Shown: in pieces, positions 4,039 through 23,430 of the stretch
How the letters are laid out: each line of letters starts with the position of its first letter
How positions within the stretch are numbered: the stretch's first letter is position 1
From: a virus
Virus record (IMG/VR): IMGVR_UViG_3300027736_000021
Reading direction: 5' to 3' (one strand)
DNA length: 64,000 nt
Notes under the pieces: generated by a model
Told to the model about the DNA's origin: nothing
Seen by the model: only the letters and a program-made list of their open reading frames with translations
Database searches by the model: none
Made by a program: the position numbers and the translations under genes

Positions 4039-5153
4039 AATTAAATAAAGAACAAGCCATATATTGTGCCAAATACATGGAAGATTATTACCATCATTTT
4101 GACCGCATTGATGATTATATGCGTAGTCAAAAAATGGGACAAATTGCAGAGATGCCTGTTTGTTTACCAGGATGTGGGCCTGAAGAAGATTTGTTCTCTG
4201 ATTTCACCATTCATCCAGACGATATGGAGTTTGAATTGGTTGATATTGGTTCTTCTCGTTGGTTAGATTATATCTCCGTTATTTCTTCTCACCTAATCTC
4301 TCGTAGTGTTCCCGGTCGCATAGTTCAGTTTGCTGTATTTGAAAAGAACACAAAGAAGATTGTTGGTTTCATTCGCCTTGGTTCTCCCGTCATCAATATG
4401 AAACCTCGTAATGAAATGCTTGGTCAAGTATTCACACAGAGCAAAGAAGCCGCAAGAAACTTTAATAACTCGGCTGCAATGGGTTTCACCATTGTTCCTG
4501 CTCAACCATTTGGTTTCAATTATCTTGGTGGTAAATTACTTGCCGCTATGTGTTGTTCTCATGAATTGCGTGGAGTTATGAACAAAAAGTATGGTATGAA
4601 TCTCTGCTTGTTTGAAACAACCAGTCTGTATGGTTCTTCAAAGACAGTATCACAGTATGATGGTATGAAACCATATCTCCGTTTCAAAGGTCTAACTGAT
4701 AGTAACTTTGTACCAATGCTTGACGGGGATGCCTACAAGAAACTTAAAGACTATGTTGAGGCTGCAACAGGTGAACAATTGGTTGATCCATCCGATTCAA
4801 GTAAGAAACTCAAAGCAACAATAAAAGTTATTAGTATGGTTAAGATGGCACTAAAAGGTGAACCTGAACTCACACGATTCAATGAAGTGATTGATAAGGC
4901 TAAAGGTCTTACTGAAAGAAAACGATACTATATCTCCAACTATGGTTTCAAAAACTTTATTGAAGTGGTTAATGGCACAGAAACAGAGTTGGTTCCTGAC
5001 CCCGAAAACTATGAAAAGTTTCACATGAAAAACATCGTGGAATGGTGGAAAAAGAAAGCATCCAATCGTTTTGAAACATTAAAGAACGATGGCCGTATCA
5101 GAACCGAGATGGAAGTATGGTCTGGCGATAAAGAGATTGACATTATCCGTTAG
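4035..5153 (+). CDS. DUF4338 / DruA-like protein (GNAT/Mom-related fold)
   Basis: GFIRLGSP, FNYLGGKLLA, ETTSLYG, SQYDG motifs recognised from T4-like DUF4338 proteins. Confidence 0.7.
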   Translation: MKLNKEQAIYCAKYMEDYYHHFDRIDDYMRSQKMGQIAEMPVCLPGCGPEEDLFSDFTIHPDDMEFELVDIGSSRWLDYISVISSHLISRSVPGRIVQFAVFEKNTKKIVGFIRLGSPVINMKPRNEMLGQVFTQSKEAARNFNNSAAMGFTIVPAQPFGFNYLGGKLLAAMCCSHELRGVMNKKYGMNLCLFETTSLYGSSKTVSQYDGMKPYLRFKGLTDSNFVPMLDGDAYKKLKDYVEAATGEQLVDPSDSSKKLKATIKVISMVKMALKGEPELTRFNEVIDKAKGLTERKRYYISNYGFKNFIEVVNGTETELVPDPENYEKFHMKNIVEWWKKKASNRFETLKNDGRIRTEMEVWSGDKEIDIIR

Positions 5154-5195: not shown

Positions 5196-6674
5196 ATGTC
5201 GAAATTGACCGCAGATGAGTTTTTTAAATTGCCAAATGCAAAAAGACCAGACAGAAGAAAAATTCTTTTAGCTGCTATCAATTCAAATAAAGGACTAGAA
5301 GTTTATCTTAGTGGCAATAAAGAAACAGTAATGACATTTCCAAAAGCTAAGAATACTAATTCCATTAAACAAATTCAAAATCTTAAAATTGGAGATAAAA
5401 CAACATTTGGTATTATTAGATTGACGGGTTCTGATGGTAAACCATATAAGATATCAGATATTAAAAAGAGTAAAGAATTTGGTGGTGGTGGAGGTAGTCG
5501 AGGCGGTTCAGATTTAACAGCATTGACCGAAAGTGGCCAATGTTATGTTGCATCATTAGTTTTTAATGTTAAGAAAAAAGCAATTAAGTGGGAAGATTTA
5601 ACATATGAAGATTTAGTGACAGCTGCTAAATATGTTGATACTGGTAAAACTACATTAGATGATGTGTTAAATGAAAGTCCTTCTGAATGGGTGCAATCTT
5701 ATGTTAAAGTTGCAAATTATCTTTATGCAAACTATAAGATGAAATCAGGAAAAACAGTATATTTTCATAGAGATTCGGAGTTTCATAAAAAAATATTTGA
5801 ATATAAAAAAGAATGTTTAGCAGCAGATAAAGCAAGCAATACACCGCAAGCACCAGGTTCATTTGGTGATGATAAATGGAATCCTGGTGATATTTGGATG
5901 ACGACATTTGGAAAATCACAAACTTCATTACCAAAATTACCGTCAGATAGTTGGTCAGCACTCAATAAAGAAATTTATAATTTAGCGGGTAAAGGTTCTT
6001 CAACAAATAGAGAATTATTAGGTGTATCATTAAAGAAAATTGAAAGAGCTGTTAAATCTGATGAGTATAATATACCAGGAACAAAAAAGAGTACCTATAA
6101 ATTTAATGGCTTTGTTGTTAGTCCAGAAAGAATAAGTAAAGGACAATTACCATTCTTCTCATCAATAGATTGTTATCTTTATATTGGCGATGGCAGAGTC
6201 CAGTTTCGTGCAACAAGTGGTAGTGCAAGCAAACCATCATGGCAAGGTGAGATATCAGGTTCAACTGCCGCTGGTGGTAAAGTGGGCGGTGGTAATGTAA
6301 ACATTTATTTGAAAAATAATTATGGTGAAGGAATTTTTAGAGAGTCTGAATCAGAACTTGTAAACAAAGTTAATACGCCTGCTTTTTATACAGAGTTTTA
6401 CGGAATGTATAAGAAATTATTTAAAAATGCAAATTATATAACTTATAATAAATCTGATATGGGAGAAATGGTATCAGAAATAGATTTTAAAAAGATGGCA
6501 AAAGCTAGAGCAAAAGAAACGGAATCATTTATTATTTCAAAATATATGTGTATGAAGATGATTGATATAATGATGAGTGATATAACAAAATTAAATTCAT
6601 TTTCAACTGATGTTTTTCTATATGGCGCATCCAACACTAACCAGAGTTCATACTTTGTAAAAATATATGAGTAA
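5196..6674 (+). CDS. Hypothetical protein, possible PD-(D/E)xK-like nuclease domain
   Basis: TESGQC...DKWNPGDIW...GVSLKK pattern. Confidence 0.45.
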   Translation: MSKLTADEFFKLPNAKRPDRRKILLAAINSNKGLEVYLSGNKETVMTFPKAKNTNSIKQIQNLKIGDKTTFGIIRLTGSDGKPYKISDIKKSKEFGGGGGSRGGSDLTALTESGQCYVASLVFNVKKKAIKWEDLTYEDLVTAAKYVDTGKTTLDDVLNESPSEWVQSYVKVANYLYANYKMKSGKTVYFHRDSEFHKKIFEYKKECLAADKASNTPQAPGSFGDDKWNPGDIWMTTFGKSQTSLPKLPSDSWSALNKEIYNLAGKGSSTNRELLGVSLKKIERAVKSDEYNIPGTKKSTYKFNGFVVSPERISKGQLPFFSSIDCYLYIGDGRVQFRATSGSASKPSWQGEISGSTAAGGKVGGGNVNIYLKNNYGEGIFRESESELVNKVNTPAFYTEFYGMYKKLFKNANYITYNKSDMGEMVSEIDFKKMAKARAKETESFIISKYMCMKMIDIMMSDITKLNSFSTDVFLYGASNTNQSSYFVKIYE

Positions 6675-7896
6675 ATTTTTAGAGTTTATAACAGAAGGTA
6701 AAGAAGGCAAGAATGTTCACCTTGAGCATATTGAAGATGAATTGCTCAATCGTGGTGTAGCAGGTGGCCGAGAAGCAATTAATTTTCTCCGTTCTCTCCG
6801 TGATATGCTTGCTGGTCAATCACAATCTCATGTGAATGTAACAACAAAATGGGACGGTGCACCAGCAATATTTGTTGGTACCAATCCTGAGAATGGTAAA
6901 TTCTTTGTTGGTACTAAGGGTGTGTTTGCTAAAAATGCAAAACTAAATTATACAGATAAAGACATTGACAAAAATCACCCAGCCGAAGGTCTGAATGATA
7001 AGTTGAAAGTTGCATTACGTTATCTACCAAAACTTGGTATCAAAGGTGTATTGCAAGGCGATATGATGTTTTCAAAAAGTGATTTGAAAAAAGAAACCAT
7101 AGATGGTGAAAAATATATTACCTTTCAACCAAACACAATCGTCTATGCCATTCCTGCTGATTCAAAACTAGCACAGTCAATGATGGCTGCACAATTAGGC
7201 GTGGTGTTTCATACATCATACACAGGCAAAACCATATCTGATATGAAGGCATCATTCAATGTGGATATTGGTAAGTTATCTACAACCAAAGATGTTTGGT
7301 TTCGTGATGCTTCGTTTGTTGATGCTTCTGGTACTGCCACATTTACTGAAGATGAAACAAAAGAAATTACAAGAGTGTTATCACAGGCAGGTTCTTTATT
7401 TCAACAGATTAATCCATTGGCATTGAATCGCATTTCAGCCAATGAAACAATTCTAATGCAGATTAAAACATTCAATAATAGTAAGGTGCGTGAAGGTCAG
7501 GCAATTAAGAATACAACAGCACACACTAATGAATTGATTAAAACAATTGAAACAAAATTGAATCAATCTGTTCTTGAAGCCAAATTAGAAAAAACCAAAA
7601 AAGAAAGAATTGCAAAGAAGAATGAAATCATGCGGTTCTATCGTAGTAATGCTGCCGAACTTAAAAAGATATTTGATTTACAGAATTTATTTGTTGATGC
7701 TAAACTAATGATTGTTCGTAAATTGGAAACCATTCGTGATGTAGGCACATTCATTCGCACAGACAATGGATTTAGAATTACTGCACCAGAAGGTTTCGTA
7801 GCCGTTGACCGAATTAAAGGTAACGCTATGAAGTTAATAGATAGATTAGAATTCTCACAAGCAAATTTTACTGCTGCAAAAAATTGGAGTAAATAA
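6667..7896 (+). CDS. DUF6267-like ATP-dependent ligase-fold nucleotidyltransferase, probably head-packaged
   Basis: TTKWDG (motif I KxDG), LQGD, PEGFVAV (motif IV), MKL (motif V); N-terminal MSKFLEFITE capsid-targeting-like leader. Confidence 0.65.
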   Translation: MSKFLEFITEGKEGKNVHLEHIEDELLNRGVAGGREAINFLRSLRDMLAGQSQSHVNVTTKWDGAPAIFVGTNPENGKFFVGTKGVFAKNAKLNYTDKDIDKNHPAEGLNDKLKVALRYLPKLGIKGVLQGDMMFSKSDLKKETIDGEKYITFQPNTIVYAIPADSKLAQSMMAAQLGVVFHTSYTGKTISDMKASFNVDIGKLSTTKDVWFRDASFVDASGTATFTEDETKEITRVLSQAGSLFQQINPLALNRISANETILMQIKTFNNSKVREGQAIKNTTAHTNELIKTIETKLNQSVLEAKLEKTKKERIAKKNEIMRFYRSNAAELKKIFDLQNLFVDAKLMIVRKLETIRDVGTFIRTDNGFRITAPEGFVAVDRIKGNAMKLIDRLEFSQANFTAAKNWSK

Positions 7897-8558: not shown

Positions 8559-9404
8559 ATGAAAGATTTGATTATAGGATGTACCACGAATTATGATTGG
8601 AGTAAACTGAAGTATTGGGTTAACTCTATCAACAAATCAGGTTATAAAGGCGAGAAAGTTATGGTCGCCTTTAACATTGATTATGAAACCATCAAACGGC
8701 TATCTGATGCCGGATTTCAGGTCATTTTGCCTGGAAAAGCAAACGACACCACACAACGATATGAATACCAATCATCGTTGCCTGTCCATGTAGAGCGCTT
8801 TGTTCACATCTACAATTACCTACAATCACATGATGCTTATCGGTTTGTTATTACTACCGATGTTAAAGATGTAATCTTTCAGGAAGACCCAACAAAATAC
8901 CTTGGCATGGAATTACCAGGTGCTAAGCTGATGTTTGCTTCCGAATCAATGAAATACAAAGATGAACCATGGGGTAACCAAAACTTAATTGAAACATTTG
9001 GTCCCTTCTTCCATGAAAGATTCAAAGACAATACAATCTACAATGTAGGCGTTTTGGCAGGTCGTGGTGAAGCGATGAGAGATTTGTGTGCGATGATATT
9101 TGTTATGTCAGTAAATCGACCTATACCAATTGTGGATCAATCCACATTTAACTTTATGATTTCACAAGAGCCATATAAATCTGTGGCAAGATACATGAAG
9201 TCAGAAGATGGATGGGCTGCACAATTAGGCACAACTGCCGACCCAAGTAAGATTAACGAATTCAAACCATTCTTGCTTGAACCATCACCAATTATGAAAG
9301 ACGGCAAAGTTGCAACTTCAACAGGAAAAGACTTTACAATTGTTCATCAATATGATAGAGTACCAGAATGGAAAAAGGTTATAGAGGAAAAATATAATGA
9401 CTAA
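8559..9404 (+). CDS. GT-A fold glycosyltransferase-like protein
   Basis: ITTDVKDVIFQ, YNVGVLAG, VDQSTFN, IVHQYDR. Confidence 0.7.
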   Translation: MKDLIIGCTTNYDWSKLKYWVNSINKSGYKGEKVMVAFNIDYETIKRLSDAGFQVILPGKANDTTQRYEYQSSLPVHVERFVHIYNYLQSHDAYRFVITTDVKDVIFQEDPTKYLGMELPGAKLMFASESMKYKDEPWGNQNLIETFGPFFHERFKDNTIYNVGVLAGRGEAMRDLCAMIFVMSVNRPIPIVDQSTFNFMISQEPYKSVARYMKSEDGWAAQLGTTADPSKINEFKPFLLEPSPIMKDGKVATSTGKDFTIVHQYDRVPEWKKVIEEKYND

Positions 9405-10425
9405 AAGAGTATTAATTACAGGTGGTGCAGGCTTCATTGCACATCACTTGATTGAAACAATCCTTGATACAACAGATTGGACAATCGTATCACTTGACCG
9501 ATTAGATTTCTCTGGCAATCTAAATCGCCTTGAAGATATTATGAAGAAGTATTCACCTGAGCAGAAGAAACGGGTTGAGATTGTGTTCCATGATTTGCGT
9601 GCTGAAATTAATCCACAGACTTCAGGTTTAATTGGTGATGTTCAATTAGTATTGCACCTTGCAGCTGGTTCTCATGTAGACCGCTCAATTGAATTTCCAA
9701 TGGAGTTTGTGCAAGACAATGTAATCGGTACAGTTAATCTATTAAACTATGCTCGCACATTAAAGAACTTAGAAAAGTTTGTTTACTTCAGCACAGATGA
9801 AGTGTTTGGTCCCGCACCAGAAGGCGTAGATTACAAAGAAAGAGACCGTTACAATGCTACGAATCCATATTCAGCATCTAAGGCGGCAGGTGAAGAAATG
9901 TGTGTTGCATTTGAGAACACATACAATATGCCAATCATTGTTACACATACAATGAATGTGTTTGGTGAACGCCAACATCCTGAGAAGTTTATTCCTAAGG
10001 CCATTCGGTATGCTCGTGATGGTGAAACACTTACTATTCACTCTGATAGAAGCAAAACAAAGGCAGGCTCACGCCACTATGTTCATGCTAAAGATGTTGC
10101 AGATGGTTTAATGTTTATTCTAAACCTGCCTGAAGATTATGCTCGTATTCCAGATTTTGGTGGTGCGAAGATTCCTAAGTTTAATATTGTGGGACCAGAT
10201 GAAGTAGATAACTTAGAATTGGCTAAATTAATTGCAGAAGCACAAAACAAGGAGTTAAAATATGAAATGGTTGACTTTCATTCATCCAGACCTGGCCACG
10301 ATTTACGCTACGCTTTGTCTGGTGATTATATGGAATCTTTAGGATGGAAACCAAAGATTTCTTTGCGTGACCGCATTAAAGGTATGGTTCAATGGTCGTT
10401 AGAAAATGATAAGTGGCTCAAATGA
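9397..10425 (+). CDS. rfbB: dTDP-glucose 4,6-dehydratase
   Basis: TGGAGFI, HLAAGSHVDRSI, STDEVFG, YSASK, RPGHDLRYA. Confidence 0.93.
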   Translation: MTKRVLITGGAGFIAHHLIETILDTTDWTIVSLDRLDFSGNLNRLEDIMKKYSPEQKKRVEIVFHDLRAEINPQTSGLIGDVQLVLHLAAGSHVDRSIEFPMEFVQDNVIGTVNLLNYARTLKNLEKFVYFSTDEVFGPAPEGVDYKERDRYNATNPYSASKAAGEEMCVAFENTYNMPIIVTHTMNVFGERQHPEKFIPKAIRYARDGETLTIHSDRSKTKAGSRHYVHAKDVADGLMFILNLPEDYARIPDFGGAKIPKFNIVGPDEVDNLELAKLIAEAQNKELKYEMVDFHSSRPGHDLRYALSGDYMESLGWKPKISLRDRIKGMVQWSLENDKWLK

Positions 10426-11129
10426 AGATTGCTCTTTGTTTATCAGGACAAGCTCGTAGCGTAAAACAAGGTTATGAGTTTGTTAAAAGAAACATACTAG
10501 ACGGTAATGATGTTACCGTTTTTTGTCATGTGTGGGAATCACCTGAAGTTGCAGATATTGAAATCTATAAACCTGAAGCATTTATGATTGAGAAGTCATT
10601 GACAAATGACCTATCAAAATACACCAGAGTTCCGCCACCACAACCAAATTGGAAAGTAAAAGACCCAGCTAGGTCAACTTATAACCAATTGTATGGCATT
10701 ATGAAATGTAATGAATTAAAAACGGTCTATGAAGAATCCAATAACATGAAATTTGATTGGGTAATTCGTTCTCGTTTTGATTTTGCCATTAATGCTAGAA
10801 TACCTTTTGCAGATTTAGATAATACAAAACTTCATATACCTAATTGTCGTATGACACCTCAAAGAGATTTCGGTAATGACCAATTTGCATTTTCATCTTC
10901 AGAAAATATGGACAAGTATGCAGACACTTTTAACCGTATTGATGAATTTTATGATGAAGATGGTGTGCAAATGATGTGTGAAGATATGATGAGTGAAAAC
11001 TGGAAAGCAAATAATTTAGTTGGAGAAAATTTGATATATTGTAATCTTGACCATCCATTTCCACCAGGCCAATATAACGGAACATGGCACAGTTTGATTC
11101 GTGAGGACTTTGAACAATGGCTTCGTTAG
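10422..11129 (+). CDS. Glycosyltransferase-like protein
   Basis: KIALCLSGQAR, FDWVIRSRFD, NDQFAF motifs typical of glycan-cluster proteins. Confidence 0.55.
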   Translation: MKIALCLSGQARSVKQGYEFVKRNILDGNDVTVFCHVWESPEVADIEIYKPEAFMIEKSLTNDLSKYTRVPPPQPNWKVKDPARSTYNQLYGIMKCNELKTVYEESNNMKFDWVIRSRFDFAINARIPFADLDNTKLHIPNCRMTPQRDFGNDQFAFSSSENMDKYADTFNRIDEFYDEDGVQMMCEDMMSENWKANNLVGENLIYCNLDHPFPPGQYNGTWHSLIREDFEQWLR

Positions 11130-11833
11130 TATTATGCATGGCTGGGTTAAACACCAGATTCCATGATGTTGGCTTTGACATACCAAAGTATCTGTTGCCT
11201 TGGGGTGATGAAACAATTATCCATGAAATCATTAAGCAACTTGGTACTTTTGATGAAACTATTCTTCTGGCGAATAAAAGAGATTCTTATTTTAAGACCA
11301 AGTTAGTTGATACAATTAAACCACTAGGTCTAACAGAGAATAATATTCAATACATTGGTGATACTGATGGTCAGGCACACACAGCATACATTGGTGCTTC
11401 ACTACTAAAGAATCAAACCAAACCATTCTTTGTTCACAATGCTGATACACTTTTAATTGGCAGAGATTTTGATAAGATTGAAAGTTTGATGGCTGATGGT
11501 TACATTGATGTGTTTGTTGCCAATAATCCAAAGTATTCTTATGTTCGTTCAAAAGATGGACTTGTAACAGAGATTGTAGAGAAATCTCCTATCTCTCCAT
11601 TTGCCAGTTCTGGTCTATATGGGTTTCAAAGCTCACAATTATACCAACAGATGTATGAGAGTTTATCTGCCACATTTGTTGGTAAGGAAATGTATATTGC
11701 AAATCTATTTACACATATGATTGAGAAGAATTGTTCTATTGGCTTGAATGGATTAAATAACAACTATGAAACTATTGTTCTTGGTTCACCACAAGAATAT
11801 GGTCTTGAACTAGCAAAGAAAAGTTTAAAATGA
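11117..11833 (+). CDS. Sugar/cyclitol-phosphate nucleotidyltransferase (GT-A NTP transferase)
   Basis: MAGLNTRF..IPKYLL, TDGQAHT, HNADT, EIVEK, SGLYGF, LGSPQE. Confidence 0.8.
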   Translation: MASLVLCMAGLNTRFHDVGFDIPKYLLPWGDETIIHEIIKQLGTFDETILLANKRDSYFKTKLVDTIKPLGLTENNIQYIGDTDGQAHTAYIGASLLKNQTKPFFVHNADTLLIGRDFDKIESLMADGYIDVFVANNPKYSYVRSKDGLVTEIVEKSPISPFASSGLYGFQSSQLYQQMYESLSATFVGKEMYIANLFTHMIEKNCSIGLNGLNNNYETIVLGSPQEYGLELAKKSLK

Positions 11834-12783
11834 AAGTTACACAATTAAAAGGCGGTTCTCTTAGTTCTACATCATTATATGAAGATGGTGATAGGAAGTT
11901 TATTCGCAAATCAATTAGCACAAAAGACAATCGTGAATATGGTTATGTTCGTTGGTATACACAGTTAAAGAAACTACAACGATTGGCTGAAACTGGTTTG
12001 TTTCCAAAAATATTAGATGTGAATTATTCAAATAACTCAGCCTATTTTGATATCGCTTATTTGGAAGGTTACAGAGATATTAAAACCATTTTATCAGAAG
12101 ATAAATTAACTGAAAATCAAATTGAAAGAATACATGATGCGATGATGTGGTCGTTTGATAACTTACACCGCAAAATGTATATACCAAATCCTGGTGGTCC
12201 CAAATTATATTTTAAAGAAGAAGTTACACAAAAACTTTCAGATGCTTTTAAGTATCCAACTTTCTATAATTTTTATGAACTTGGAACATTCAATACTTTT
12301 GAATACAATGGTCAAATAACACATGGCATTCAAAACTTTTTACCTGAGTTGAAGAACTTCTTTGATGAAATGGAATTGGTTACAGAAGAAAATATTCATG
12401 GTAATCCAACATTAGAAAATATGATGTATTCTTTTGAAGAAGATAAAGTCATATTCATTGACCCGTATGAAGAAAGCATTATAGATAGTAGGCTATTAGA
12501 TTATTCACAGGTGCTTCAATGTTCTCGTAGTCATTATGGCTTTATAAATGATAGGTTTGTTATCATAGAAGGTTCATCTGTATCACATAACTTAGAAATA
12601 CCAAATAATCTAAAAGTATTTAATAAAATCTTTGAATCACACCTTGAACATAAACAAATCATTGATGTATTAGAGGCAACTCAATTCATTCGTATGTTGC
12701 CATTTAAGTGTGCAGCTGGTGATTTTGAAAAGGCAAAATTCTTTTATGTTCATGCTTGCCACTTGTTAAGTAAGATATTCTAA
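11830..12783 (+). CDS. APH/choline-kinase-like phosphotransferase
   Basis: LKGGSLS N-terminus, FIRK, IHGNPTLENM (HGD-type loop with Asn), IFIDP. Confidence 0.7.
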   Translation: MKVTQLKGGSLSSTSLYEDGDRKFIRKSISTKDNREYGYVRWYTQLKKLQRLAETGLFPKILDVNYSNNSAYFDIAYLEGYRDIKTILSEDKLTENQIERIHDAMMWSFDNLHRKMYIPNPGGPKLYFKEEVTQKLSDAFKYPTFYNFYELGTFNTFEYNGQITHGIQNFLPELKNFFDEMELVTEENIHGNPTLENMMYSFEEDKVIFIDPYEESIIDSRLLDYSQVLQCSRSHYGFINDRFVIIEGSSVSHNLEIPNNLKVFNKIFESHLEHKQIIDVLEATQFIRMLPFKCAAGDFEKAKFFYVHACHLLSKIF

Positions 12784-13925
12784 TGGAAAATGTATTAACA
12801 AAATTTGATAATTATAAACGCACTTGGTCAGTTAAAGCTGAACTGCCGGTTGAATTTGTCTTAAAGTATTCTAGTGATGTATTTAATATTAACAATCACG
12901 ACCTGTTAAGTTTTGGTGAGTCCAATCGTAGAGTGGTTGTCATAGACCAGACTGTATATAAACTGTATGGTCAACAATTACAAGATTACTTCAACACATT
13001 CAAAATAGAATTAAAACTATTTGTTATTGATGCCACAGAACAAAACAAAGATTGGGAACACACAGACCAGATTTTAAGGTTCTTTGAAGATGTTGGTGTA
13101 TTGCGTAGAGAAGCAATCATTGTAATTGGTGGTGGTGTTCTGCTTGATTTGGTTGGATTCTGTTGTTCAATCTATCGCAGAGGCATTCCTTATGTTAAAG
13201 TTCCAACTACATTGTTGGCTATCGTAGATGCTTCTGTTGGTGTTAAAGTTGCAGCTAATCACTTTGGCCGCAGAAATCGTATTGGTGCATATTACCCACC
13301 AATTGCCACATTACTAGACAAGAAGTTTATTGCTACACAAGATGAAAGAAACATTGTCAATGGCATTGCAGAGATATTTAAACTTGCAGTAATCAAAGAC
13401 AAAGAATTATTTGAGTTACTTGAAGCAAGTGCAGAACAACTAATCACCGAGAAGTTTCAGTTTGGTGCAGTACCAGTTCGTGTAATCAATTCTGCCATTA
13501 CGGGCATGATTGAAGAATTGGCACCAAATTTATGGGAAAGAAAACTAGACCGATGTGTTGACTTTGGCCATTCGTTTAGTCCTATTATTGAAATGCAAAA
13601 TATGGACACACTACAACATGGCGAAGCAGTTGTATTAGATTGCTTGTTGAGTTCTTGTTTGGCTAATGTTCGTGGTTACATTGATACTGAAACACTAGAA
13701 AGAATCTTTAAGACAGCACACAGTTTAAAATTGCCTGTATTCCATAAAGATTTTTGTAAATTTGACTTGCTTAAAAAGTCTTTATCTGATACAATGAAGC
13801 ATAGAAACAGTAATCAATACTTACCTGTGCCAGTCGGCATTGGCAACTATAAAATATTAAATGATGTAACAGATGATGAGATAAAGAAAGCTTCAGATAT
13901 ATTTGAAGAAGTTAAATATGAATAA
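12783..13925 (+). CDS. Sedoheptulose 7-phosphate cyclase, 2-epi-5-epi-valiolone synthase (EEVS) type
   Basis: GGGVLLDLVG, YRRGIP, PTTLLAIVDASVG, RNRIG, AEIFK, MIEELAPNLWE, RCVDFGHSFSP, LQHGEAV. Confidence 0.85.
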   Translation: MENVLTKFDNYKRTWSVKAELPVEFVLKYSSDVFNINNHDLLSFGESNRRVVVIDQTVYKLYGQQLQDYFNTFKIELKLFVIDATEQNKDWEHTDQILRFFEDVGVLRREAIIVIGGGVLLDLVGFCCSIYRRGIPYVKVPTTLLAIVDASVGVKVAANHFGRRNRIGAYYPPIATLLDKKFIATQDERNIVNGIAEIFKLAVIKDKELFELLEASAEQLITEKFQFGAVPVRVINSAITGMIEELAPNLWERKLDRCVDFGHSFSPIIEMQNMDTLQHGEAVVLDCLLSSCLANVRGYIDTETLERIFKTAHSLKLPVFHKDFCKFDLLKKSLSDTMKHRNSNQYLPVPVGIGNYKILNDVTDDEIKKASDIFEEVKYE

Positions 13926-14589
13926 GACAATTCTAATTACTGGCACCACAAGTGGTGTTGGTGCAAAAATCGCATATGATTACATTGAGAAAGGTTGGAA
14001 TGTAATTGGTTTTGCTCGTGGTGAATCTATATTTCAATTTCCAAACTACAAACATTTTCAAGTTGATGTTACTAGCTGTTATGAGATGTATGATATATTT
14101 GAACAGATTGGTAATATTGACATTCTAGTTAATAATGCAGCTGTCTTTAAGATGAAATCATTTTCAGACACCACTTTAGATGAGATTGATGATATGATTG
14201 ATATCAATCTTAAAGGTGCCATGTATGTAACTAAGTTTGCATTACAGAAAATGGAAAAAGGCAGTCGTATATTCTTTATCAATTCAGTTGCAGGCCTTGA
14301 AGAACTAGAAAACCAATCCGCATATTGTGCCTCTAAACATGGTCTTACAGGATTTGCTGGTGTTCTTGGTGAAGAATTGCGTAGCAGAGGAATCAAAGTA
14401 ACAAGTATTCATCCAGGCGGTATTGATACACCATTGTGGAGTAGAGATATACCTTACCCATGCGGTGATGTAAGTAAGGCAATCTCACCAATAGAACTTG
14501 TAAAAGTTATTGATTTCGTGTATAATAGCCAATTCAATATTGAATATAAAACTATTAAAATGTTTCCTGATACCGAATGGCACAAATGA
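13918..14589 (+). CDS. Short-chain dehydrogenase/reductase
   Basis: TGTTSGVG, LVNNAA, S...YCASK, HPGGIDT. Confidence 0.92.
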   Translation: MNKTILITGTTSGVGAKIAYDYIEKGWNVIGFARGESIFQFPNYKHFQVDVTSCYEMYDIFEQIGNIDILVNNAAVFKMKSFSDTTLDEIDDMIDINLKGAMYVTKFALQKMEKGSRIFFINSVAGLEELENQSAYCASKHGLTGFAGVLGEELRSRGIKVTSIHPGGIDTPLWSRDIPYPCGDVSKAISPIELVKVIDFVYNSQFNIEYKTIKMFPDTEWHK

Positions 14590-15299
14590 TTATACCTAGT
14601 ACCGATTTGTTTATTGTAACCTCTGCTCTTAAAACGAGCATTGGTGTTATTGATGATGAAACAAGAACAAGGCAAACAATTGAAGGTCTGCAATCATTAC
14701 GCAAGGCTGCACCTGATGCTATTATCTTCTTAGTAGATGCTTCTTCTAGGATGGTTGATGAAGCAACAATGGTTACAGTAACACAATATTGTGATAGAAG
14801 TATTAGTTTTTTTGGTGATGAAGATTTAATGTCACTCGCAAATGCAGGCCTTAAATCACAAGCAGAAATTACTCTATTGTTTAAGACATTAAGTATTATT
14901 AAACAACATCCTGAATTACAGAAGATGATGGCTGGTGTTCGTAGGGTGTTTAAGTTATCTGCTAGAACCAATATGCTTGAAGGTTATGACCCTAAGGCAT
15001 ATGATAATCAATATGGTAAGTATGTGTTCAAGAAAGCAATGCCATCTTGGTTACCACCACAGAAACAATTGGAATCTGGTTGTGACCACTTATACATAAC
15101 TAGAATGTATTCATTCTGTATATCATTGTTTGATAATTATCTGAATACTTTACCAGCAATTTATCAAACAATAAATCAACATGGCGTTGACACAGAACAC
15201 GCACACTATGGTAATATTGATAAAGGTTTTTCAGTAGAATTTGAAAAGTTATATTGCCAAGGAGTATTGGCTGGAAATGGACAATTGGAAGCATATTAA
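14577..15299 (+). CDS. Hypothetical glycan-cluster protein (GT-like)
   Basis: FIVTSA, RTRQTIEG, VFKLSAR motifs; inside the sugar operon. Confidence 0.45.
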   Translation: MAQMIIPSTDLFIVTSALKTSIGVIDDETRTRQTIEGLQSLRKAAPDAIIFLVDASSRMVDEATMVTVTQYCDRSISFFGDEDLMSLANAGLKSQAEITLLFKTLSIIKQHPELQKMMAGVRRVFKLSARTNMLEGYDPKAYDNQYGKYVFKKAMPSWLPPQKQLESGCDHLYITRMYSFCISLFDNYLNTLPAIYQTINQHGVDTEHAHYGNIDKGFSVEFEKLYCQGVLAGNGQLEAY

Positions 15300-16582
15300 T
15301 GATTGATGATAAATTAATTGAAGAAATAGCCAAACAGGCTAAACCAAAGTATCAACAAGACTATTCTAACTTCAAACCTGGCGAAGATTATGTAATGTAT
15401 TCTGGCCAAATGTGGGACGAAAAAGAGTTTGCTGCTGGTCTAAAATCGTTTCTAACAGGTAAATGGTTACCAGCAGGTGAAAGAGTTGAGCAATTTCAAA
15501 TTAAGTTCTCAAAGAAATACAATGTAAAACAATCTCACATGGTTAATTCTGGTTCATCTGCCAATTTGGTGATGATGGCTGCTGTTAAGAAACATTTAAA
15601 TTGGCAAGATGGTGATGAAGTCATTGTATCACCAGTTGGATTTCCAACTACAATTGCACCACTCATGCAAAACAATCTTAAACCAGTATTCATTGATATT
15701 GAGTTTGATACATTGAACTTTGATGTGAATAAGATTGAAGAAAAGATTACAAAAAAGACCAAAGCAATTATTGTTTCTCCTGTATTGGCCAATCCGCCTG
15801 ACATGGATATAATCCATGATATTTGTTACAGAAATAACCTTGTATTGATTGGTGATAATTGTGATTCACTAGGCACCAAATGGGATGGAAAGTTGATTAC
15901 TGATTTATATTACTGCTGGTCAACATCATTCTATCCTGCACACCATATGTCAACAGGTGAAGGCGGTATGATTTCATCTAATGATGAAAAGTTAATTGAT
16001 ACTGCTCGTTCTATTTCTTGGTGGGGTCGTGATTGTTATTGTGTTGGTTCAAACAATATGTTACCATGTGGAACTTGTGGTAATAGATTTGATAAGTGGT
16101 TGCCAGATTATGATGGCATTATTGACCACAAATATATTTTTGCTTATGCAGGTTACAACCTGAAGCCTCTTGATATGCAAGGTGCCATTGGTATAGCACA
16201 ATTAGAAAAGGTTGATTACATTCACGAGAAAAGAAAAGAACATAAAGAACGGCTAACCAAACTATTGCTTAAATATTTGAATGTTCGTGTTGCTGACAAA
16301 CTAGATAAATCTGAACCATCATGGTTTGGTGTGCCAATTATTTGTGAAACACAAAAACAAAAAGAAGCTTTAGTTGCACACTTTGAAGCCAATAAGATTC
16401 AAACACGAAACTATTTTGCTGGTAATATTCTATTGCATCCAGGCTTTAAACACTTAGATGATGCGAGTAAATATCCATTGGCAAACAAAGCGTTATCTCA
16501 TGTATTTTTGTTAGGTTGTCCTCCATTTTGGAATGATGCAGTATTTGATTATATTGAAAAGGTGATTAAAAATGTTACTTAA
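15299..16582 (+). CDS. rfbH: CDP-4-keto-6-deoxyglucose 3-dehydrase (E1, RfbH/DdhC; DegT family)
   Basis: NSGSSAN, FYPAHHMSTGEGG (His instead of Schiff-base Lys), WGRDCYC...CG [2Fe-2S] ligands. Confidence 0.85.
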   Translation: MIDDKLIEEIAKQAKPKYQQDYSNFKPGEDYVMYSGQMWDEKEFAAGLKSFLTGKWLPAGERVEQFQIKFSKKYNVKQSHMVNSGSSANLVMMAAVKKHLNWQDGDEVIVSPVGFPTTIAPLMQNNLKPVFIDIEFDTLNFDVNKIEEKITKKTKAIIVSPVLANPPDMDIIHDICYRNNLVLIGDNCDSLGTKWDGKLITDLYYCWSTSFYPAHHMSTGEGGMISSNDEKLIDTARSISWWGRDCYCVGSNNMLPCGTCGNRFDKWLPDYDGIIDHKYIFAYAGYNLKPLDMQGAIGIAQLEKVDYIHEKRKEHKERLTKLLLKYLNVRVADKLDKSEPSWFGVPIICETQKQKEALVAHFEANKIQTRNYFAGNILLHPGFKHLDDASKYPLANKALSHVFLLGCPPFWNDAVFDYIEKVIKNVT

Positions 16583-16763
16583 AAATGTAAATGATTGTAA
16601 TTTAATTGTTGAAACACAATCGACTAGAAACCCATCTGATTTAACTAAAATTACATTTAGACGAGAAATTTTAGATTCAAAAACCAAAAAAGTAATTAGT
16701 TACAATAATTTTGATATGCATCTTACAAATGATGAAATCCAAAGGTTAAAACAAGCACTATGA
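16572..16763 (+). CDS. Small hypothetical protein
   Basis: Overlap-coupled to both neighbours. Confidence 0.5.
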   Translation: MLLKNVNDCNLIVETQSTRNPSDLTKITFRREILDSKTKKVISYNNFDMHLTNDEIQRLKQAL

Positions 16764-17575
16764 AAATTCAAGTATTTGGTGGCTCAGGCTTCGTTGGTTC
16801 TGAATTTACTAGACAGAATCCTGGTTGTATAGTAAATGCTCGTAATGATTATGAAATAAAAAGCCAAGATATTCTTTACATGATTTCTACTGTAACAAAT
16901 TACAATGTAAAGACTGACCCTTTTATTGACATTGATACAAATCTTACTATATTGATGAAAGTTTTACGACAATGTAAAAGTTCACCCGTAACATTTAACT
17001 TTATCAGTTCATGGTTTGTTTATGGTGAAACAGAGATGCCTGCAACCGAAGAATCAAATTGTTATCCAAATGGATTCTATTCTATTACTAAACGATGTGC
17101 AGAGCAATTACTAATCTCTTATTGTGAAACATTTGGTATCAAGTATCGTATTCTCCGTCTTGCTAATGTTGCAGGTTATGGCGATAAAAAGGCATCACCA
17201 CAAAAGAACGCACTTCAACATATGATTAATGAATTGAAGGCAGGCCGTGATGTGAATGTCTATGATGGCGGCAATCTTTACCGAGATTATATTCATGTGA
17301 ATGATGCCGCTAGAGCAATTAAACTCATCATGGAAAAAGGCGAAGTTAATACTACCTACAATGTGGGTAATGGGCAACCATTGTTATTCAAGGATATGAT
17401 TGAGTATGCCAAAGAATTAATTGGTGGGGAAGGCAAATTAGTGCCGATTGAAATTCCTGACTTCCATCGCACGGTACAAGTTCGTAGTATGTGGATGCTA
17501 TCTGATAAATTAAAATCATTAGGATACACTCCAAACTATGATATGAAGGCTATTATTGAGGACATGGTTAAATGA
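16760..17575 (+). CDS. NAD-dependent epimerase/dehydratase/reductase (extended SDR)
   Basis: FGGSGFVG, SSWFVYG, YSITK, RDYIHVND. Confidence 0.9.
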   Translation: MKIQVFGGSGFVGSEFTRQNPGCIVNARNDYEIKSQDILYMISTVTNYNVKTDPFIDIDTNLTILMKVLRQCKSSPVTFNFISSWFVYGETEMPATEESNCYPNGFYSITKRCAEQLLISYCETFGIKYRILRLANVAGYGDKKASPQKNALQHMINELKAGRDVNVYDGGNLYRDYIHVNDAARAIKLIMEKGEVNTTYNVGNGQPLLFKDMIEYAKELIGGEGKLVPIEIPDFHRTVQVRSMWMLSDKLKSLGYTPNYDMKAIIEDMVK

Positions 17576-18294
17576 ATTTAATTTTGTATCAGGCATACTA
17601 TGATAACAGTCAGTTGCCTATTTTAGACTCTACATTTACCCCGTATGATAATACAGAAAATGCCAAACCAGAATTGCGGGAATATCCCATGTGGAAAAAT
17701 CTATTAGAAAAACACAAAGATACCGATGTATATTGGGGTCTTTTATCGTGGCGTTGGATGCAAAAGACAGAGTTGCCTTCTTCTGAGTTTCGTGATTGGA
17801 TTTTGGCCAATCCTGATTACGATGTGTATCACATGGATCCAAGTTTAGAAGTTACAGCAAACTATATTAATCTTTGGGTGCAAGGTGACCAATGGCATCC
17901 CGGTATGCTGAAGTTTGCAAATCGTTTATTTCCAAAAATTGGTATCACCGAGAAGGCTGAAGAATTAGTTTATAAGTCTGATGATTTTGCTACTTGCAAT
18001 TATTATATTGGCAACTCAAAGTTTTGGACAGAATGGTTAACATTCCTTGATAACACATTAGAGATTTGTCGTGGAGATGGAGAACTATATAATTACCTCT
18101 ATCGTGATGGTAAAGGATATAACGGCTCATGGATCCCATTCTTTTCATTTGTAACGGAAAGATTGTTATCTATTTTCTTAATTCAAAATAGGCACATAAA
18201 AGTTAAGAAGTTTCCCATTGAACACTCATGTTATGCAAAACGATTTGGCTCACAATTTCACCAGTTTGTAGAAGAATATAATAAAAAGAAATGA
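17572..18294 (+). CDS. Hypothetical glycan-cluster protein (GT-like)
   Basis: PYDN..PELRE, WGLLSWR, FVTERL motifs. Confidence 0.45.
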   Translation: MNLILYQAYYDNSQLPILDSTFTPYDNTENAKPELREYPMWKNLLEKHKDTDVYWGLLSWRWMQKTELPSSEFRDWILANPDYDVYHMDPSLEVTANYINLWVQGDQWHPGMLKFANRLFPKIGITEKAEELVYKSDDFATCNYYIGNSKFWTEWLTFLDNTLEICRGDGELYNYLYRDGKGYNGSWIPFFSFVTERLLSIFLIQNRHIKVKKFPIEHSCYAKRFGSQFHQFVEEYNKKK

Positions 18295-19070
18295 TTAATC
18301 AATTTGATTACGAAAAACTCAATAAAGAGTATAATGAAGGCAAACCCTTTCGCCATGTAGTAATTGACAATTTCTTTGACGATGAAACAGCATTGAAATT
18401 ATCTTCTGAATTTCCTGACTTTAATGACCCAAACATTTGGTCTGTATATAAGAATCCCATTGAAAACAAAAAACTGACACCTAATTGGGACTTGTTTCCT
18501 AAAGAAACATACAAGGCCTTTTCTTTGATGAATACACCAGAGTTTGTGGATAAAGTCCGTAAAATTACTGGTATTGATAATTTAGAAGCAGATTATGGAC
18601 TACATGGTGGTGGATGGCACATGACTGCTCGTGGTGGTAAATTGAATATGCACAAAGATTATTCAATTCATCCAAAACTTGGTAAAGAAAGACGATTAAA
18701 TATCATTATCTACATGACACCAGATTGGCAAGAAGAATGGAATGGTGGTTTAGAATTCTGGTCACACGATGAAGAAAAGAATCTACCAAAAGAATGTGTA
18801 ACCAAATTATACAATAAGTTTAATCGTGCGGTTCTATTTGATACCGCAGACAATTCGTGGCATGGACTACCAACAGAACTCCAATGTCCAGATGGTGTGT
18901 ATCGTAAGTCATTGAATATCTACTATCTTTCAGAAGCTCGTGAACAAGCAGAAAAACACGATAGAGCCATGTTTGCACCTTATGGAGAGCAGGCAAACAA
19001 TCAAGAAATACTAGATTTGATTAAGAAAAGGTCTAGTTCCAAAACATCCTCAGAAGCATACAGAACATAA
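18291..19070 (+). CDS. 2OG-Fe(II) oxygenase (prolyl-hydroxylase-like)
   Basis: PFRHVVIDNF, HKD (HxD), GGLEFW, SWHG, RKSL. Confidence 0.9.
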   Translation: MINQFDYEKLNKEYNEGKPFRHVVIDNFFDDETALKLSSEFPDFNDPNIWSVYKNPIENKKLTPNWDLFPKETYKAFSLMNTPEFVDKVRKITGIDNLEADYGLHGGGWHMTARGGKLNMHKDYSIHPKLGKERRLNIIIYMTPDWQEEWNGGLEFWSHDEEKNLPKECVTKLYNKFNRAVLFDTADNSWHGLPTELQCPDGVYRKSLNIYYLSEAREQAEKHDRAMFAPYGEQANNQEILDLIKKRSSSKTSSEAYRT

Positions 19071-19074
19071 ATTG

Positions 19075-19082
19075 TATAAATA
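19075..19082 (+). promoter_or_regulatory. T4 late promoter
   Basis: Perfect TATAAATA in the intergenic gap before 19118. Confidence 0.75.
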
Positions 19083-19117: not shown

Positions 19118-21583
19118 ATGAAATTTAGAGAATTTATACAAGAAGCACCAGAGAAGCACGCCGTCCTTGCCTTTGGCAGGATGAATCCGCCTACAACCGG
19201 CCACGCCAAGTTGGTGGATAAGGTCAAAGAGGTTGCTAAGTCTGTTGGTGGTTCACACCATGTTGTTCTCTCTCACTCACAGGATCCTAAAAAGAATCCT
19301 CTCTCCGCAAAAGATAAACTCAAACACGCAAAACGGTTCTTTCCTGACACCAATCTGTCAACTTCAAATAAAGAATCTCCTACTTTTCTTGACCAAGCGG
19401 CTAAACTCCACAAATCTGGTGTAACGCATTTACACATGGTGGCGGGTTCTGACCGCAAAGAAGAATACAAAAAGAAACTGGCACAATACAATGGATCAGC
19501 CAAAGGCGCACTATTCAATTTTAAAAAGATTACTGTTCATTCTTCTGGTGAAAGAGATCCTGATGCTGAAGGCACAGAGGGAATGTCAGCATCAAAAATG
19601 AGAAGTCATGCTTCAACAGGCAACTTCAAAGAATTTAAGAAAGGCATTCCATCTCATGTTGAACCAAGCCATGCAAAAGAATTGTATAGTGATGTTCGTA
19701 AACACATGGGCATTAAAGAATCTGTTGATGAAGCATTTGAAGAATTATTGAATGAAGGTGTGCATGACAAAGGCATTTTCAAAGCAGTATTTCTAGCAGG
19801 TGGTCCTGGTTCTGGTAAAGATTATGTTTTAGATAACACACTTGCTGGTAATGGCATGGTTGAGATTAACTCTGATAAAGCTTTAGAGTTCTTGATGGAT
19901 AAAAAAAATCTAAGCAAGACGATGCCTGCATCTGAGAAGATTGAAAGAGATTTGGTTCGTGGTCGAGCCAAGAACATGACCGAGTTACGCCAGCGTTTAG
20001 CACTACAAGGTCGTAATGGTTTGATTATCAATGGCACAGGTGATGACCATGAAAAGATTAAAACAATTAAATCTCGCCTTGAAGAATTAGGCTATGATAC
20101 ATCAATGATTATGGTCAACACACGAGATGAAGTATCCGCTTCACGAAATGTTGAAAGAGGTTCTCGTGGTGGTCGTACCGTACCTGAAGATGTTCGCAAA
20201 CAAAAATGGGACGCCGTTCAAAAAGCAAGACCAGAGTTAGCAAAACTATTTGGTGACAAGTATGCTGAGTTTGATAACTCTGAAGATTTAAGAGTTGCAC
20301 GACCAGAAATAGTGCAAGCAAAAAAAGAAGAACTTTTGAACCTATACAAAGGTATTCAGAAGTTTATAAAAGCACCACCAAAAACAGACCAGTCTAAAGA
20401 ATGGGTAGCAAATGAGTTGCAGAAAAAAGATACGATGCCAATTGATAAGAAAACTGATGCAATACCACATCCTAATTCTGCTGCTTCTACTGAAGCACGA
20501 AAACTTGGTTTAGAATACTACGGCTTTGGTCGCTATGGTAAAGATAGAAAAACATTGTATCGCTCGGTACATGATAAACTAGTTAAGGTTTCTGATGCAG
20601 AACCATCACAACCAAATATTCCAATTTCAGGTTCATCTATGAAATCACAGAAAAAAATTAATGAAGAATTTGAAGAATTATTTGAGGCTAAGAAACCAAC
20701 AGCACTTGATAAGTTTCGTCAAGCTGCAGCTGAAAGAGAAAAGAAACATGATGAAATTGAAGCTAAACGCAAAGAAGCCGCAGCACAAGGCAAAGAAAAT
20801 ATGTCTGGTGCAATTGACCGTTTAGAGAAACAAGTTAACAAAGAAGAAGTTGAAAAAGTAAATGAAATTTCAGTTGATTCAGCATCCAATTATATTAAAA
20901 AAAGAACATTTGGTTATGTAAAAACAATGAAAGGCCAAGTTCAACCTTCTGATGTATATAACAAAATGTCAGATAAACACCAAGCAGGTATCAATCGTGC
21001 TATGGATAGAGTTGTTAAACCAGTTAAAGAAGAAGTTAAGTTAGACCATAAAAATTTATTAAAAGACTATAACGGCAAAGTAAAAACATTTATGCTTCGC
21101 CGTTCAGCAGCAAAAGAAGCCCACATCAATGGTGGTGTAGTCCACAAGATGGGCAATGGATATGTTATTAAAATTAAGGAGAATGAAGATGCTAAAAGCA
21201 CTAATCAATTATTTGAAAATCAAACCAACAGTATCGCCATGCGAGGACAAACCAGTAGAAGCTCCAAAGGCGGAAGAGCCAGCGAAGAAAGAAACTGTCA
21301 AGAAGGCTACAACACGGGCAAAATCACCCTCAGTCAAATCCGCTCCAAGAAAGAAAAAGTAAGCGAATCAATTGATAGAGGAATTGAACCAGGACTTTCA
21401 ATGGCCCAATCTGGTGAAAACTTTAGTAGACCTGCAGGTGAGAAATTGACCAAGAAAGGTCGAGTTGTTACTGAGTTAACTGGTGATGAAACAACAGCCA
21501 GTATTGGTGACCAAAAAGAAGATGAACTTAAAAAGAAAGGCATTAGTTTATTGTCATTCAGAAAAAGAAATTACGCACTATGA
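19118..21583 (+). CDS. Cytidylyltransferase-like (HxGH) plus Zeta/AAA_33-like P-loop kinase multidomain protein, probably head-packaged
   Basis: FGRMNPPTTGH, VAGSDR, MSASKMR; LAGGPGSGK, INSD, LIINGTG, RNVER; leader MKFREFIQE. Confidence 0.8.
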   Translation: MKFREFIQEAPEKHAVLAFGRMNPPTTGHAKLVDKVKEVAKSVGGSHHVVLSHSQDPKKNPLSAKDKLKHAKRFFPDTNLSTSNKESPTFLDQAAKLHKSGVTHLHMVAGSDRKEEYKKKLAQYNGSAKGALFNFKKITVHSSGERDPDAEGTEGMSASKMRSHASTGNFKEFKKGIPSHVEPSHAKELYSDVRKHMGIKESVDEAFEELLNEGVHDKGIFKAVFLAGGPGSGKDYVLDNTLAGNGMVEINSDKALEFLMDKKNLSKTMPASEKIERDLVRGRAKNMTELRQRLALQGRNGLIINGTGDDHEKIKTIKSRLEELGYDTSMIMVNTRDEVSASRNVERGSRGGRTVPEDVRKQKWDAVQKARPELAKLFGDKYAEFDNSEDLRVARPEIVQAKKEELLNLYKGIQKFIKAPPKTDQSKEWVANELQKKDTMPIDKKTDAIPHPNSAASTEARKLGLEYYGFGRYGKDRKTLYRSVHDKLVKVSDAEPSQPNIPISGSSMKSQKKINEEFEELFEAKKPTALDKFRQAAAEREKKHDEIEAKRKEAAAQGKENMSGAIDRLEKQVNKEEVEKVNEISVDSASNYIKKRTFGYVKTMKGQVQPSDVYNKMSDKHQAGINRAMDRVVKPVKEEVKLDHKNLLKDYNGKVKTFMLRRSAAKEAHINGGVVHKMGNGYVIKIKENEDAKSTNQLFENQTNSIAMRGQTSRSSKGGRASEERNCQEGYNTGKITLSQIRSKKEKVSESIDRGIEPGLSMAQSGENFSRPAGEKLTKKGRVVTELTGDETTASIGDQKEDELKKKGISLLSFRKRNYAL

Positions 21584-21885
21584 AAAGACTAAAAGATTTT
21601 TTAAATGAAGCTGCGCCTGCATGGCAACGCAAAGAAGGTAAAAATTCTGAGGGCGGTTTAAACCGCAAAGGAATTGAATCTTATCGCCGGGAGAATCCTG
21701 GTTCAAAACTTTCAATGGCAGTTACAACAAAGCCATCAAAATTAAAACCTGGCTCAAAGGCAGCCAATCGCCGCAAATCATTCTGTGCTAGAATGGGTGG
21801 CATGAAGAAGCGTTTGACTTCTGCTAAAACTGCCAATGATCCAGATAGCAGAATCAATAAAGCTTTAAGAAAATGGAATTGTTAA
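21580..21885 (+). CDS. DUF6321-like small basic protein
   Basis: AWQRKEGKN.EGGLN, RRKSFCARM, SRINKALRKWNC. Confidence 0.75.
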   Translation: MKRLKDFLNEAAPAWQRKEGKNSEGGLNRKGIESYRRENPGSKLSMAVTTKPSKLKPGSKAANRRKSFCARMGGMKKRLTSAKTANDPDSRINKALRKWNC

Positions 21886-21898
21886 AAAAGGAACTAAG

Positions 21899-23422: not shown

Positions 23423-23430
23423 GATCTAAA

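Follow-up and report, generated by a model that had tools for sequence, protein, structure and literature searches.

In a stretch of 64,000 nucleotides from the IMG/VR virus record IMGVR_UViG_3300027736_000021, hereafter called the window, four genes at 11117-14589 encode a short nucleotidyltransferase (NT), a protein with the predicted fold of small-molecule kinases, a putative cyclase of the EEVS type (EEVS, the synthase of 2-epi-5-epi-valiolone), and a classical short-chain dehydrogenase/reductase (SDR). An earlier note on this DNA had described them as overlap-coupled, and all four were found as stated. The junction of the NT and kinase-like genes is an ATGA overlap and that of the kinase-like and cyclase genes a TAATG overlap. 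Cyclase and SDR genes overlap by 8 nt if the SDR starts at ATG 13918 (MNKTILITG) instead of TTG 13903. Comparison with diverged phage homologues gave dN/dS values of 0.05-0.19 for all genes, and these low values indicate that the genes of the module are real.

The cyclase has the two-domain organization of dehydroquinate synthase (DHQS)-like proteins (DHQ_synthase PF01761, E-value 1.5e-33; DHQS_C PF24621, 1e-20). A search of all solved structures ranked ValA, the EEVS of validamycin biosynthesis (4p53), first with 301 bits (E-value 9e-89), followed by the desmethyl-4-deoxygadusol synthase (DDGS) of Anabaena (5tpr; 224 bits, 2e-65), DHQS structures (136 bits or less, best E-value 1e-38), and 2-deoxy-scyllo-inosose synthase (DOIS; 80 bits, 1e-21). 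These comparators were the PDB sequences of ValA, DDGS, DHQS, and DOIS, with no characterized 2-epi-valiolone synthase among them. The Gly-rich loop of the NAD+ site (GGGVLLD) was found at residue 116, and E197 (NGIAEIFK), H263 (VDFGH), and H279 (LQHGEAV) align with identical metal ligands of ValA, DDGS, and DHQS.

For the cyclases, Kean et al. reportedly defined a fingerprint of 14 residues in 2014. As EEVS signature sites we scored the EEL...PNLW segment and the Asp of RxxDxGH. Fingerprint sites separate EEVS from DDGS (PMC4426668). Both motifs named in the earlier note, MIEELAPNLWE and RCVDFGH, were located in the cyclase, at residues 242 and 257. The equivalent segments are MLEELQPNLWE and RLVDFGH in ValA, MLELEVPNLHE and RVIAYGH in DDGS, and LLNLGH in DHQS. 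DxGH was carried by 155 out of 156 aligned cyclase sequences, an alignment composed of the 150 nearest cluster representatives from a library of 1.8 billion proteins, the window cyclase, five phage cyclases, and four cyclases of bacterial cassettes. Because ValA gave the top score, the segments are of the ValA type, and DxGH is shared by nearly all relatives, the product of 12783-13925 was accepted as a putative EEVS-type sedoheptulose-7-phosphate (S7P) cyclase, rather than AroB or DDGS, as the note had proposed. In a FastTree tree, calculated without characterized anchors and read without regard to support values, the stand-alone cassette cyclases formed a clade of their own.

The four genes travel together. 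Among 26 IMG/VR contigs encoding the cyclase at 63-100% identity, every informative one kept the order 8559 gene, 10413 gene, NT, kinase-like gene, cyclase, SDR, and 14577 gene (genes are named by their start position; Table 1). The order NT, kinase-like gene, cyclase, and SDR was also present in further contigs fetched through a backbone gene. Genes for a 4,6-dehydratase, an RfbH-like protein, an epimerase, the 17572 product, and a 2-oxoglutarate (2OG) oxygenase occurred only in a subset of the 26. A kinase-based profile search covering one genome per prokaryotic species (genomes and metagenome-assembled genomes, MAGs) resulted in 17 bacterial and archaeal loci, of which 13 contain all four genes, arranged either as in the phages or with the NT behind the SDR. 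These were found in, among others, Candidatus Actinomarina, Balneolaceae, Fibrobacteria, a Polynucleobacter isolate, Myxococcales, Desulfobulbaceae, and a Woesearchaeota MAG. A Gammaproteobacteria MAG and an alphaproteobacterial MAG from Lake Mendota encode cyclases 70% identical to the phage cyclase. In two Saccharibacteria loci no SDR was detectable beside the cyclase, the kinase-like gene, and an NT that has diverged. Hence, the co-conservation on which the earlier note had made its reading depend was found in related phages and prokaryotes. The pathway is not specific to phages, since glycan loci of many bacteria contain this cassette as well.

No neighboring family in the prokaryotic loci is as widely shared as the four genes, which is the pattern of a precursor cassette. 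In a metagenomic protein from a contig of 66% GC (P0126), the kinase-like protein is fused to the cyclase and the NT is encoded upstream; in another (P0157), an EEVS-type cyclase is fused to an NTP_transferase domain. In the wider set of metagenomic fusions (P0124, P0132, P0135, P0157, P0196, P0131), EEVS-type domains are joined to ROK kinases in many cases, to an NTP_transferase with hexapeptide repeats, to an aldo-keto reductase, or to an AMP-binding enzyme, and they also lie inside proteins of more than 2,600 amino acids carrying ROK and zinc-dependent alcohol dehydrogenase (Zn-ADH) domains. The cassette of Polynucleobacter is accompanied by genes for ManC, a family 2 glycosyltransferase (GT2), a Wzz-like protein, an ABC-like ATPase, a GT9-like protein, Gmd (GDP-mannose dehydratase), and a DegT aminotransferase, and that of a further locus (L029) by GT2, GT47, and methyltransferase genes. 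Judged from gene content, both surroundings are surface-polysaccharide settings, in Polynucleobacter with the appearance of an O-antigen-type cluster.

In the phages the cassette occupies an exchangeable position. Phage contigs fetched through the backbone gene 6667-7896 (DUF6267) revealed that the island between this gene and the 19118 gene is variable, while many relatives keep the 8559, 10413, and 14577 genes. In sister phages the EEVS cassette is replaced, between the latter two, by genes for an aminoglycoside phosphotransferase (APH) family kinase with a canonical HGD loop, a protein whose C-terminus is HAD-like, and an NAD-epimerase (L073:6025-8779, L104:5591-7395, L120:14087-15516). This set looks like an alternative donor pathway, and the exchange suggests that the EEVS cassette is one of several interchangeable donor modules within a fixed transferase frame. 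Islands of other relatives contain a radical SAM gene or additional dehydratases. Within one genome pair, dS differs up to 50-fold between neighboring island genes. Against L013 the 8559 gene gave 0.012 and the cyclase 0.65; in the comparison with L025, 0.43 was obtained for the cyclase and 1.1-1.4 for its neighbors. Such differences from gene to gene point to frequent recombination and shuffling of island alleles.

The structural model of the 14577 protein (mean predicted local distance difference test, pLDDT, 84) matched glycosyltransferase families GT6 and GT8 in Foldseek (E-value 2e-7). VIA-align related it to GnT-I, SpsA, PBCV-1 A64R (Z 12.3), and glycogenin with Z-scores of 12.5-12.1; with LgtC included, the range is 12.5-11. 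Conserved are VD(A/G)S after strand 2, a candidate DxD metal/nucleotide motif in a fold also found in nucleotidyltransferases, and DTEHAH. The 10413 gene, kept in all related loci, was assigned to DUF7796 clusters of the Atlas with a score of 0.98, and a DUF7796 cluster superimposes on the 14577 model with a TM-score of 0.67. The 8559 gene was found in all informative related phage islands; an Atlas feature search returned viral clusters only, with a PF03407 lead in 10% of one cluster. Of the flanking glycosyltransferase-like proteins of the earlier note, the 14577 product and probably that of 10413 hold up at the level of fold, whereas that of 8559 has a weak glycosyltransferase lead only.

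The kinase-like protein has no Pfam or other family match, and a single-sequence search against the PDB gave no match either. Its predicted structure (pLDDT 85) has the protein-kinase-like bilobal fold of small-molecule kinases. LicA, NahK, fructosamine-3-kinase, methylthioribose (MTR) kinase, APH, and maltokinase were the best Foldseek matches (E-values 3e-7 to 1e-5), with probability 1.00 and TM-scores of 0.45-0.61 for LicA, NahK, APH(4)-Ia, and MTR kinase. LicA, NahK, MTR kinase, and maltokinase have anomeric or small alcohol groups as their targets, and several of the matches phosphorylate an anomeric hydroxyl group and thereby feed a pyrophosphorylase. K27, H190, N192, E196, N197, and D211 are invariant among the homologues; judged by motif position, not by structural superposition, K27, N197, and D211 are located at putative ATP/Mg positions (beta3 Lys, loop Asn, and DFG-like Asp). 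With a dN/dS of 0.05-0.17, the protein is clearly functional.

The NT matches the NTP_transferase family (PF00483) with 32.3 bits at a cut-off of 21.2. Its nearest solved structure is 4evw, an uncharacterized NDP-sugar pyrophosphorylase of Vibrio (2e-18), with RmlA a distant second (6e-3), and its N-terminal loop MAGLNTRF is a variant of the G-x-G-T-R type. The SDR motifs are complete (TGTTSGVG, NNAAV, S128, and Y141CASK145). In a Rhodovibrionaceae isolate (L036:9851-11742), a kinase-like gene of the cassette type and an NT gene occur together without cyclase or SDR, so this pair can serve another substrate.

We lean towards the interpretation that the four genes are a precursor cassette complete in itself, with a role like that of rmlABCD, which leads from S7P to a nucleoside diphosphate (NDP)-activated saturated C7 cyclitol as donor for the decoration of glycoconjugates. 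In this pathway we infer every chemical step, the order of steps, the nucleotide, and the acceptor. The cyclase would convert S7P into 2-epi-5-epi-valiolone or a close stereoisomer, and the SDR would act as ketoreductase on this product, yielding a saturated C7 cyclitol. The kinase-fold protein may then phosphorylate the cyclitol, most simply at the new pseudo-anomeric hydroxyl group, and the short NT would form the NDP-cyclitol from cyclitol phosphate and NTP. The position of the cassette in a donor slot between conserved GT-A-type transferases suggests that this compound is the donor, probably used by the island transferases encoded at 10413 and 14577, and by the 8559 product.

A family scan of the genes at 8559-19070 detected no ROK 7-kinase, VOC-type 2-epimerase, Zn-ADH, or dehydratase of the acarbose and validamycin routes, no phosphatase, and no GT-B pseudoglycosyltransferase; for this reason the product should be saturated. 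Measured by these enzymes, the cluster is not a pseudosugar pathway of the acarbose/validamycin type. Saturated carbasugar nucleotides are poor glycosyl donors, whereas CDP-choline, CDP-glycerol, and CDP-ribitol are substrates for transfer as a phosphate ester, resulting in a phosphodiester. Besides transfer as a pseudoglycosyl unit, transfer of the cyclitol phosphate, chemically easier for a saturated carbocycle, is thus a serious alternative. The note's transfer of the carbasugar as a glycosyl unit is chemically doubtful, given a saturated cyclitol and the missing GT-B enzyme. The bacterial context favors surface glycans as putative acceptor.

Several points weigh against a cassette supplying an NDP-cyclitol donor. 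Comparison of the neighborhoods of the prokaryotic loci revealed no transferase family co-travelling with the bacterial cassettes, and the transferase label of the 14577 product applies at the level of the fold only, because nucleotidyltransferases share the GT-A fold. Since a dehydratase is missing, direct pseudoglycosyl transfer of the VldE/AcbS type would have to proceed without its usual allylic substrate. The catalytic loop of the kinase-like protein reads H190-G-N192-P-T-L-E-N197, with Asn at the position of the catalytic Asp in HxDxxxxN. N192 is invariant in 18 phage and bacterial homologues. In P0279, a slot-B phage homologue matching Pfam APH, the Asp of HGDFTLDN occupies the aligned position, and the best, although weak, profile match among solved structures was the IHGN loop of the JAK2 pseudokinase (E-value 0.008). 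Thus, the kinase of the earlier note stands as far as the fold of the model is concerned, but its canonical catalytic Asp is replaced. It would fit these features, and the occurrence of kinase-like gene and NT in L036 without any cyclase, if the cyclase family were correctly recognized but the chemistry were not: the kinase-like protein would be no kinase but perhaps a scaffold, a protein with a binding role, or a transferase of another kind, the NT would use a different phosphate ester, and the product would not be an NDP-C7-cyclitol. We consider this unlikely, as the presumed ATP/Mg positions K27, N197, and D211 and the adjoining acidic E196 are invariant, purifying selection is strong, and P0126 is a natural fusion of kinase-like protein and cyclase. 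Moreover, the cyclase product would carry no phosphate, so the NT presumably requires a kinase, for which the kinase-like protein is the sole candidate.

The cassette might also deliver a soluble product, such as a cyclitol, free or phosphorylated, or a small pseudo-oligosaccharide put together by transferases of the island, acting during infection as glycosidase or trehalase inhibitor, osmolyte, or signal. All characterized EEVS pathways indeed give soluble natural products, namely acarbose, validamycin, kirkamide, and gadusol (PMC9200736; PMC12904256), and NDP-valienol builds a small molecule (PMC9200736). This explanation appears quite unlikely to us in view of the bacterial copies, whose loci are of the O-antigen or capsule type and contain genes for Wzz-like and ABC-type proteins and for glycosyltransferases, and of the phage slot between conserved GT-A proteins in which the cassette is swappable with other donor cassettes; nor did the family scan of the cluster find methyltransferase-oxidase partners as for gadusol or ATP-grasp and O-methyltransferase partners as for mycosporine-like amino acids. 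Hypermodification of phage DNA by the activated cyclitol to escape restriction, comparable to the glucosylated hydroxymethylcytosine of T4-type phages, would suit a T4-like phage with the island amid UvsX, gp41, gp61, and ribonucleotide reductase (RNR) genes. Yet a non-exhaustive scan of the open reading frames (ORFs) of the window found no gene resembling a dCMP or dUMP hydroxymethylase, the same cassette resides in bacterial surface-glycan loci, and the T4 DNA glucosyltransferases are GT-B rather than GT-A enzymes. DNA modification is therefore the least supported of the acceptor options and very unlikely. Finally, the label 3-dehydroquinate synthase, given by JGI to close homologues, together with a match to the TIGR01357 aroB model at 218 bits, would make the cyclase an ordinary AroB acquired from a host, as in public annotations. 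The match falls short of the cut-off of 305, DHQS structures reach less than half the score of ValA, DFGH stands in place of the DHQS motif NxGH, and the scanned ORFs of the window included no further gene of the shikimate pathway, which leaves this explanation hardly credible.

Table 1. Genes of the island containing the EEVS-type cassette
Position	Strand	Predicted product	Basis or remark
8559..9404	+	Candidate nucleotide-diphospho-sugar transferase, first gene of the island	PHROG 1579 glycosyltransferase, E 1e-7
9397..10425	+	NDP-hexose 4,6-dehydratase, RmlB-like, accessory	GDP_Man_Dehyd and Epimerase, 1e-47 to 1e-50; TIGR01181, 239 bits
10413..11129 (likely start ATG 10422)	+	DUF7796-like protein, probably GT-A-like fold, left slot border	PF25072, E 7e-6 (below cut-off)
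11117..11833 (238 aa)	+	Short sugar-phosphate-type NT	PF00483, 32.3 bits
11830..12783 (317 aa)	+	Protein-kinase-like (APH/choline-kinase fold) small-molecule kinase homologue	Predicted fold
12783..13925 (380 aa)	+	Putative EEVS-type S7P cyclase	ValA 4p53, E 9e-89
13918..14589 (ORF opens at TTG 13903)	+	Classical SDR	adh_short, 1e-41
14577..15299	+	GT-A fold transferase, right slot border	Model, Foldseek, and VIA-align
15299..16582	+	E1/RfbH-type pyridoxamine phosphate (PMP)-dependent NDP-4-keto-6-deoxyhexose 3-dehydrase, accessory	PRK15407, 366 bits; 3bcx, 6e-67
16760..17575	+	Extended-SDR epimerase/reductase, accessory	Epimerase, 3e-32; nearer loci only
17572..18294	+	Accessory protein without family	Present in part of related loci
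18291..19070	+	2OG-Fe(II) oxygenase, accessory	PF13640, 2e-14; present in part of related loci

All genes at 8559-19070 are located on the + strand, and most overlap their neighbors by 1-13 nt. Three accessory genes (9397-10425, 15299-16582, and 16760-17575) form a putative 3,6-dideoxyhexose branch that only some of the EEVS-bearing phages have; the dehydratase, for example, is missing from the EEVS-bearing phage loci L009-L012 and L017-L021. In the SFYPAHH segment of the RfbH-like protein, His replaces the Lys that forms the Schiff base, and the Cys cluster known from the E1 3-dehydrase is conserved, so that the protein is a dehydrase rather than an aminotransferase. His-His and Cys cluster ruled out that this DegT-family gene represents the amino-sugar arm of an acarbose-like pathway. 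Neither a dedicated hexose-1-phosphate nucleotidyltransferase nor an E3 reductase was recognized.

The window, with a GC content of about 35%, comes from an aquatic T4-like myovirus. It encodes UvsX, a gp41-type helicase with 62-65% identity to cyanomyovirus helicases, a primase of the gp61 type, the two subunits of RNR, PhoH, and T4 RNase H. Megablast searches of GenBank phages with the module and with the first 9 kb of the window gave no DNA-level match. The island is bracketed by the DUF6267 gene and an 821-aa gene at 19118-21583, the product of which combines a cytidylyltransferase-like domain, a Zeta-toxin/AAA_33 kinase domain, and a C-terminal part without assigned function. DUF6267 and the cytidylyltransferase part are fused in other phages, as PHROG 455 spans both. 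A late-type operon for the cluster was considered and rejected: the sole exact T4 late-promoter consensus in the window, TATAAATA, is located at 19075, upstream of the 19118 gene. The AT skew is 0.27-0.30 at 20001-24000, spanning the 3' part of the 19118 gene and the next two large ORFs, compared to 0.03-0.14 elsewhere. Between the helicase gene and the island, 4035-5153 encodes a DruA-like protein (PF14236, E-value 8.5e-13; PHROG 19197), with no further Druantia genes seen. A fatty-acid desaturase family gene (36567-37271; PF00487, 3e-16) immediately follows that of the RNR small subunit. At 56209-58509 lies a second small sugar island with a GT2 glycosyltransferase gene and a gene for an NAD-epimerase/dehydratase; a ClpP-like protease is encoded next.

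The proposed cassette resembles several known systems. In acarbose biosynthesis, the 1-kinase AcbU and AcbR lead to GDP-valienol (PMC9200736). With this GDP-valienol branch (AcbC/ValA, AcbN, AcbU, AcbR/ValB) it would share the start from S7P, the EEVS-type cyclase, SDR-type ketoreduction, a kinase, and nucleotidylation to an NDP-activated C7 cyclitol donor. In contrast, the phage cluster is shorter, its kinase has the APH/choline-kinase fold with an HGN loop, its NT comprises only 238 amino acids, a saturated product is expected, and the genes reside in a phage glycosylation island or in a bacterial locus of the O-antigen type instead of an actinomycete antibiotic cluster. The succession of an APH-fold kinase and a short enzyme of the NTP_transferase fold is also characteristic of LicA/LicC (CDP-choline) and NahK/GlmU-type salvage, in agreement with LicA and NahK as top structural matches. 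Activation by LicA/LicC is followed by transfer of the head group to surface glycans as a phosphodiester. Unlike there, the phage substrate would be made de novo by the cyclase; no relation at sequence level was detected, and no LicD-type transferase was found.

Variable islands of sugar-nucleotide enzymes and glycosyltransferases are known from T4-like aquatic phages such as the cyanophage P-SSM2, and PBCV-1 glycosylates its capsid. Judged from the model, the likeness of the 14577 protein to the viral capsid glycosyltransferase, i.e. the A64R match, is one of shared fold only. In contrast to the phage EEVS cassette, these known phage and virus sugar islands make ordinary sugars. Fusions of ROK kinases and EEVS-type domains in uncultured bacteria likewise couple a DxGH-bearing EEVS-type domain to a kinase, but one of the ROK superfamily.

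A tblastn search of 50,697 phage records with the cyclase returned only AroB-like matches of at most 30% identity, mostly on host-like contigs, and no EEVS. Our literature search found no paper linking EEVS to phages, in line with the earlier note, which knew of no described phage pathway of this kind, and phages and viruses go unmentioned in a 2026 review of cyclitols (PMC12904256). The enzymes are of known kinds. The cassette has not been described before, and neither have its kinase and its setting. Recognition of the cyclase family also matters for annotation, since close homologues are abundant in metagenomes, where hundreds bear the label 3-dehydroquinate synthase. The short four-enzyme route with its HGN kinase would be of interest for the enzymatic synthesis of NDP-carbasugars.

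The known roles of C7 cyclitols are those of antibiotics, enzyme inhibitors, and sunscreens; they are known neither as glycan constituents nor from any virus. More tentatively, and with some doubt on our side, we propose that an NDP-activated saturated C7 carbasugar is a genuine glycan building block, made by a portable cassette that is exchanged among phages and many bacteria and includes a kinase without the canonical Asp, and attached to glycoconjugates of the virion or the host surface through a glycosidase-resistant linkage. If true, carbasugars would join the monomer set of microbial surface glycans, and for abundant T4-like phages of aquatic habitats they would be one of the choices with which an exchangeable donor slot can be filled. 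Such a role would have a bearing on phage-host recognition, superinfection exclusion, and the resistance of glycans to hydrolases.

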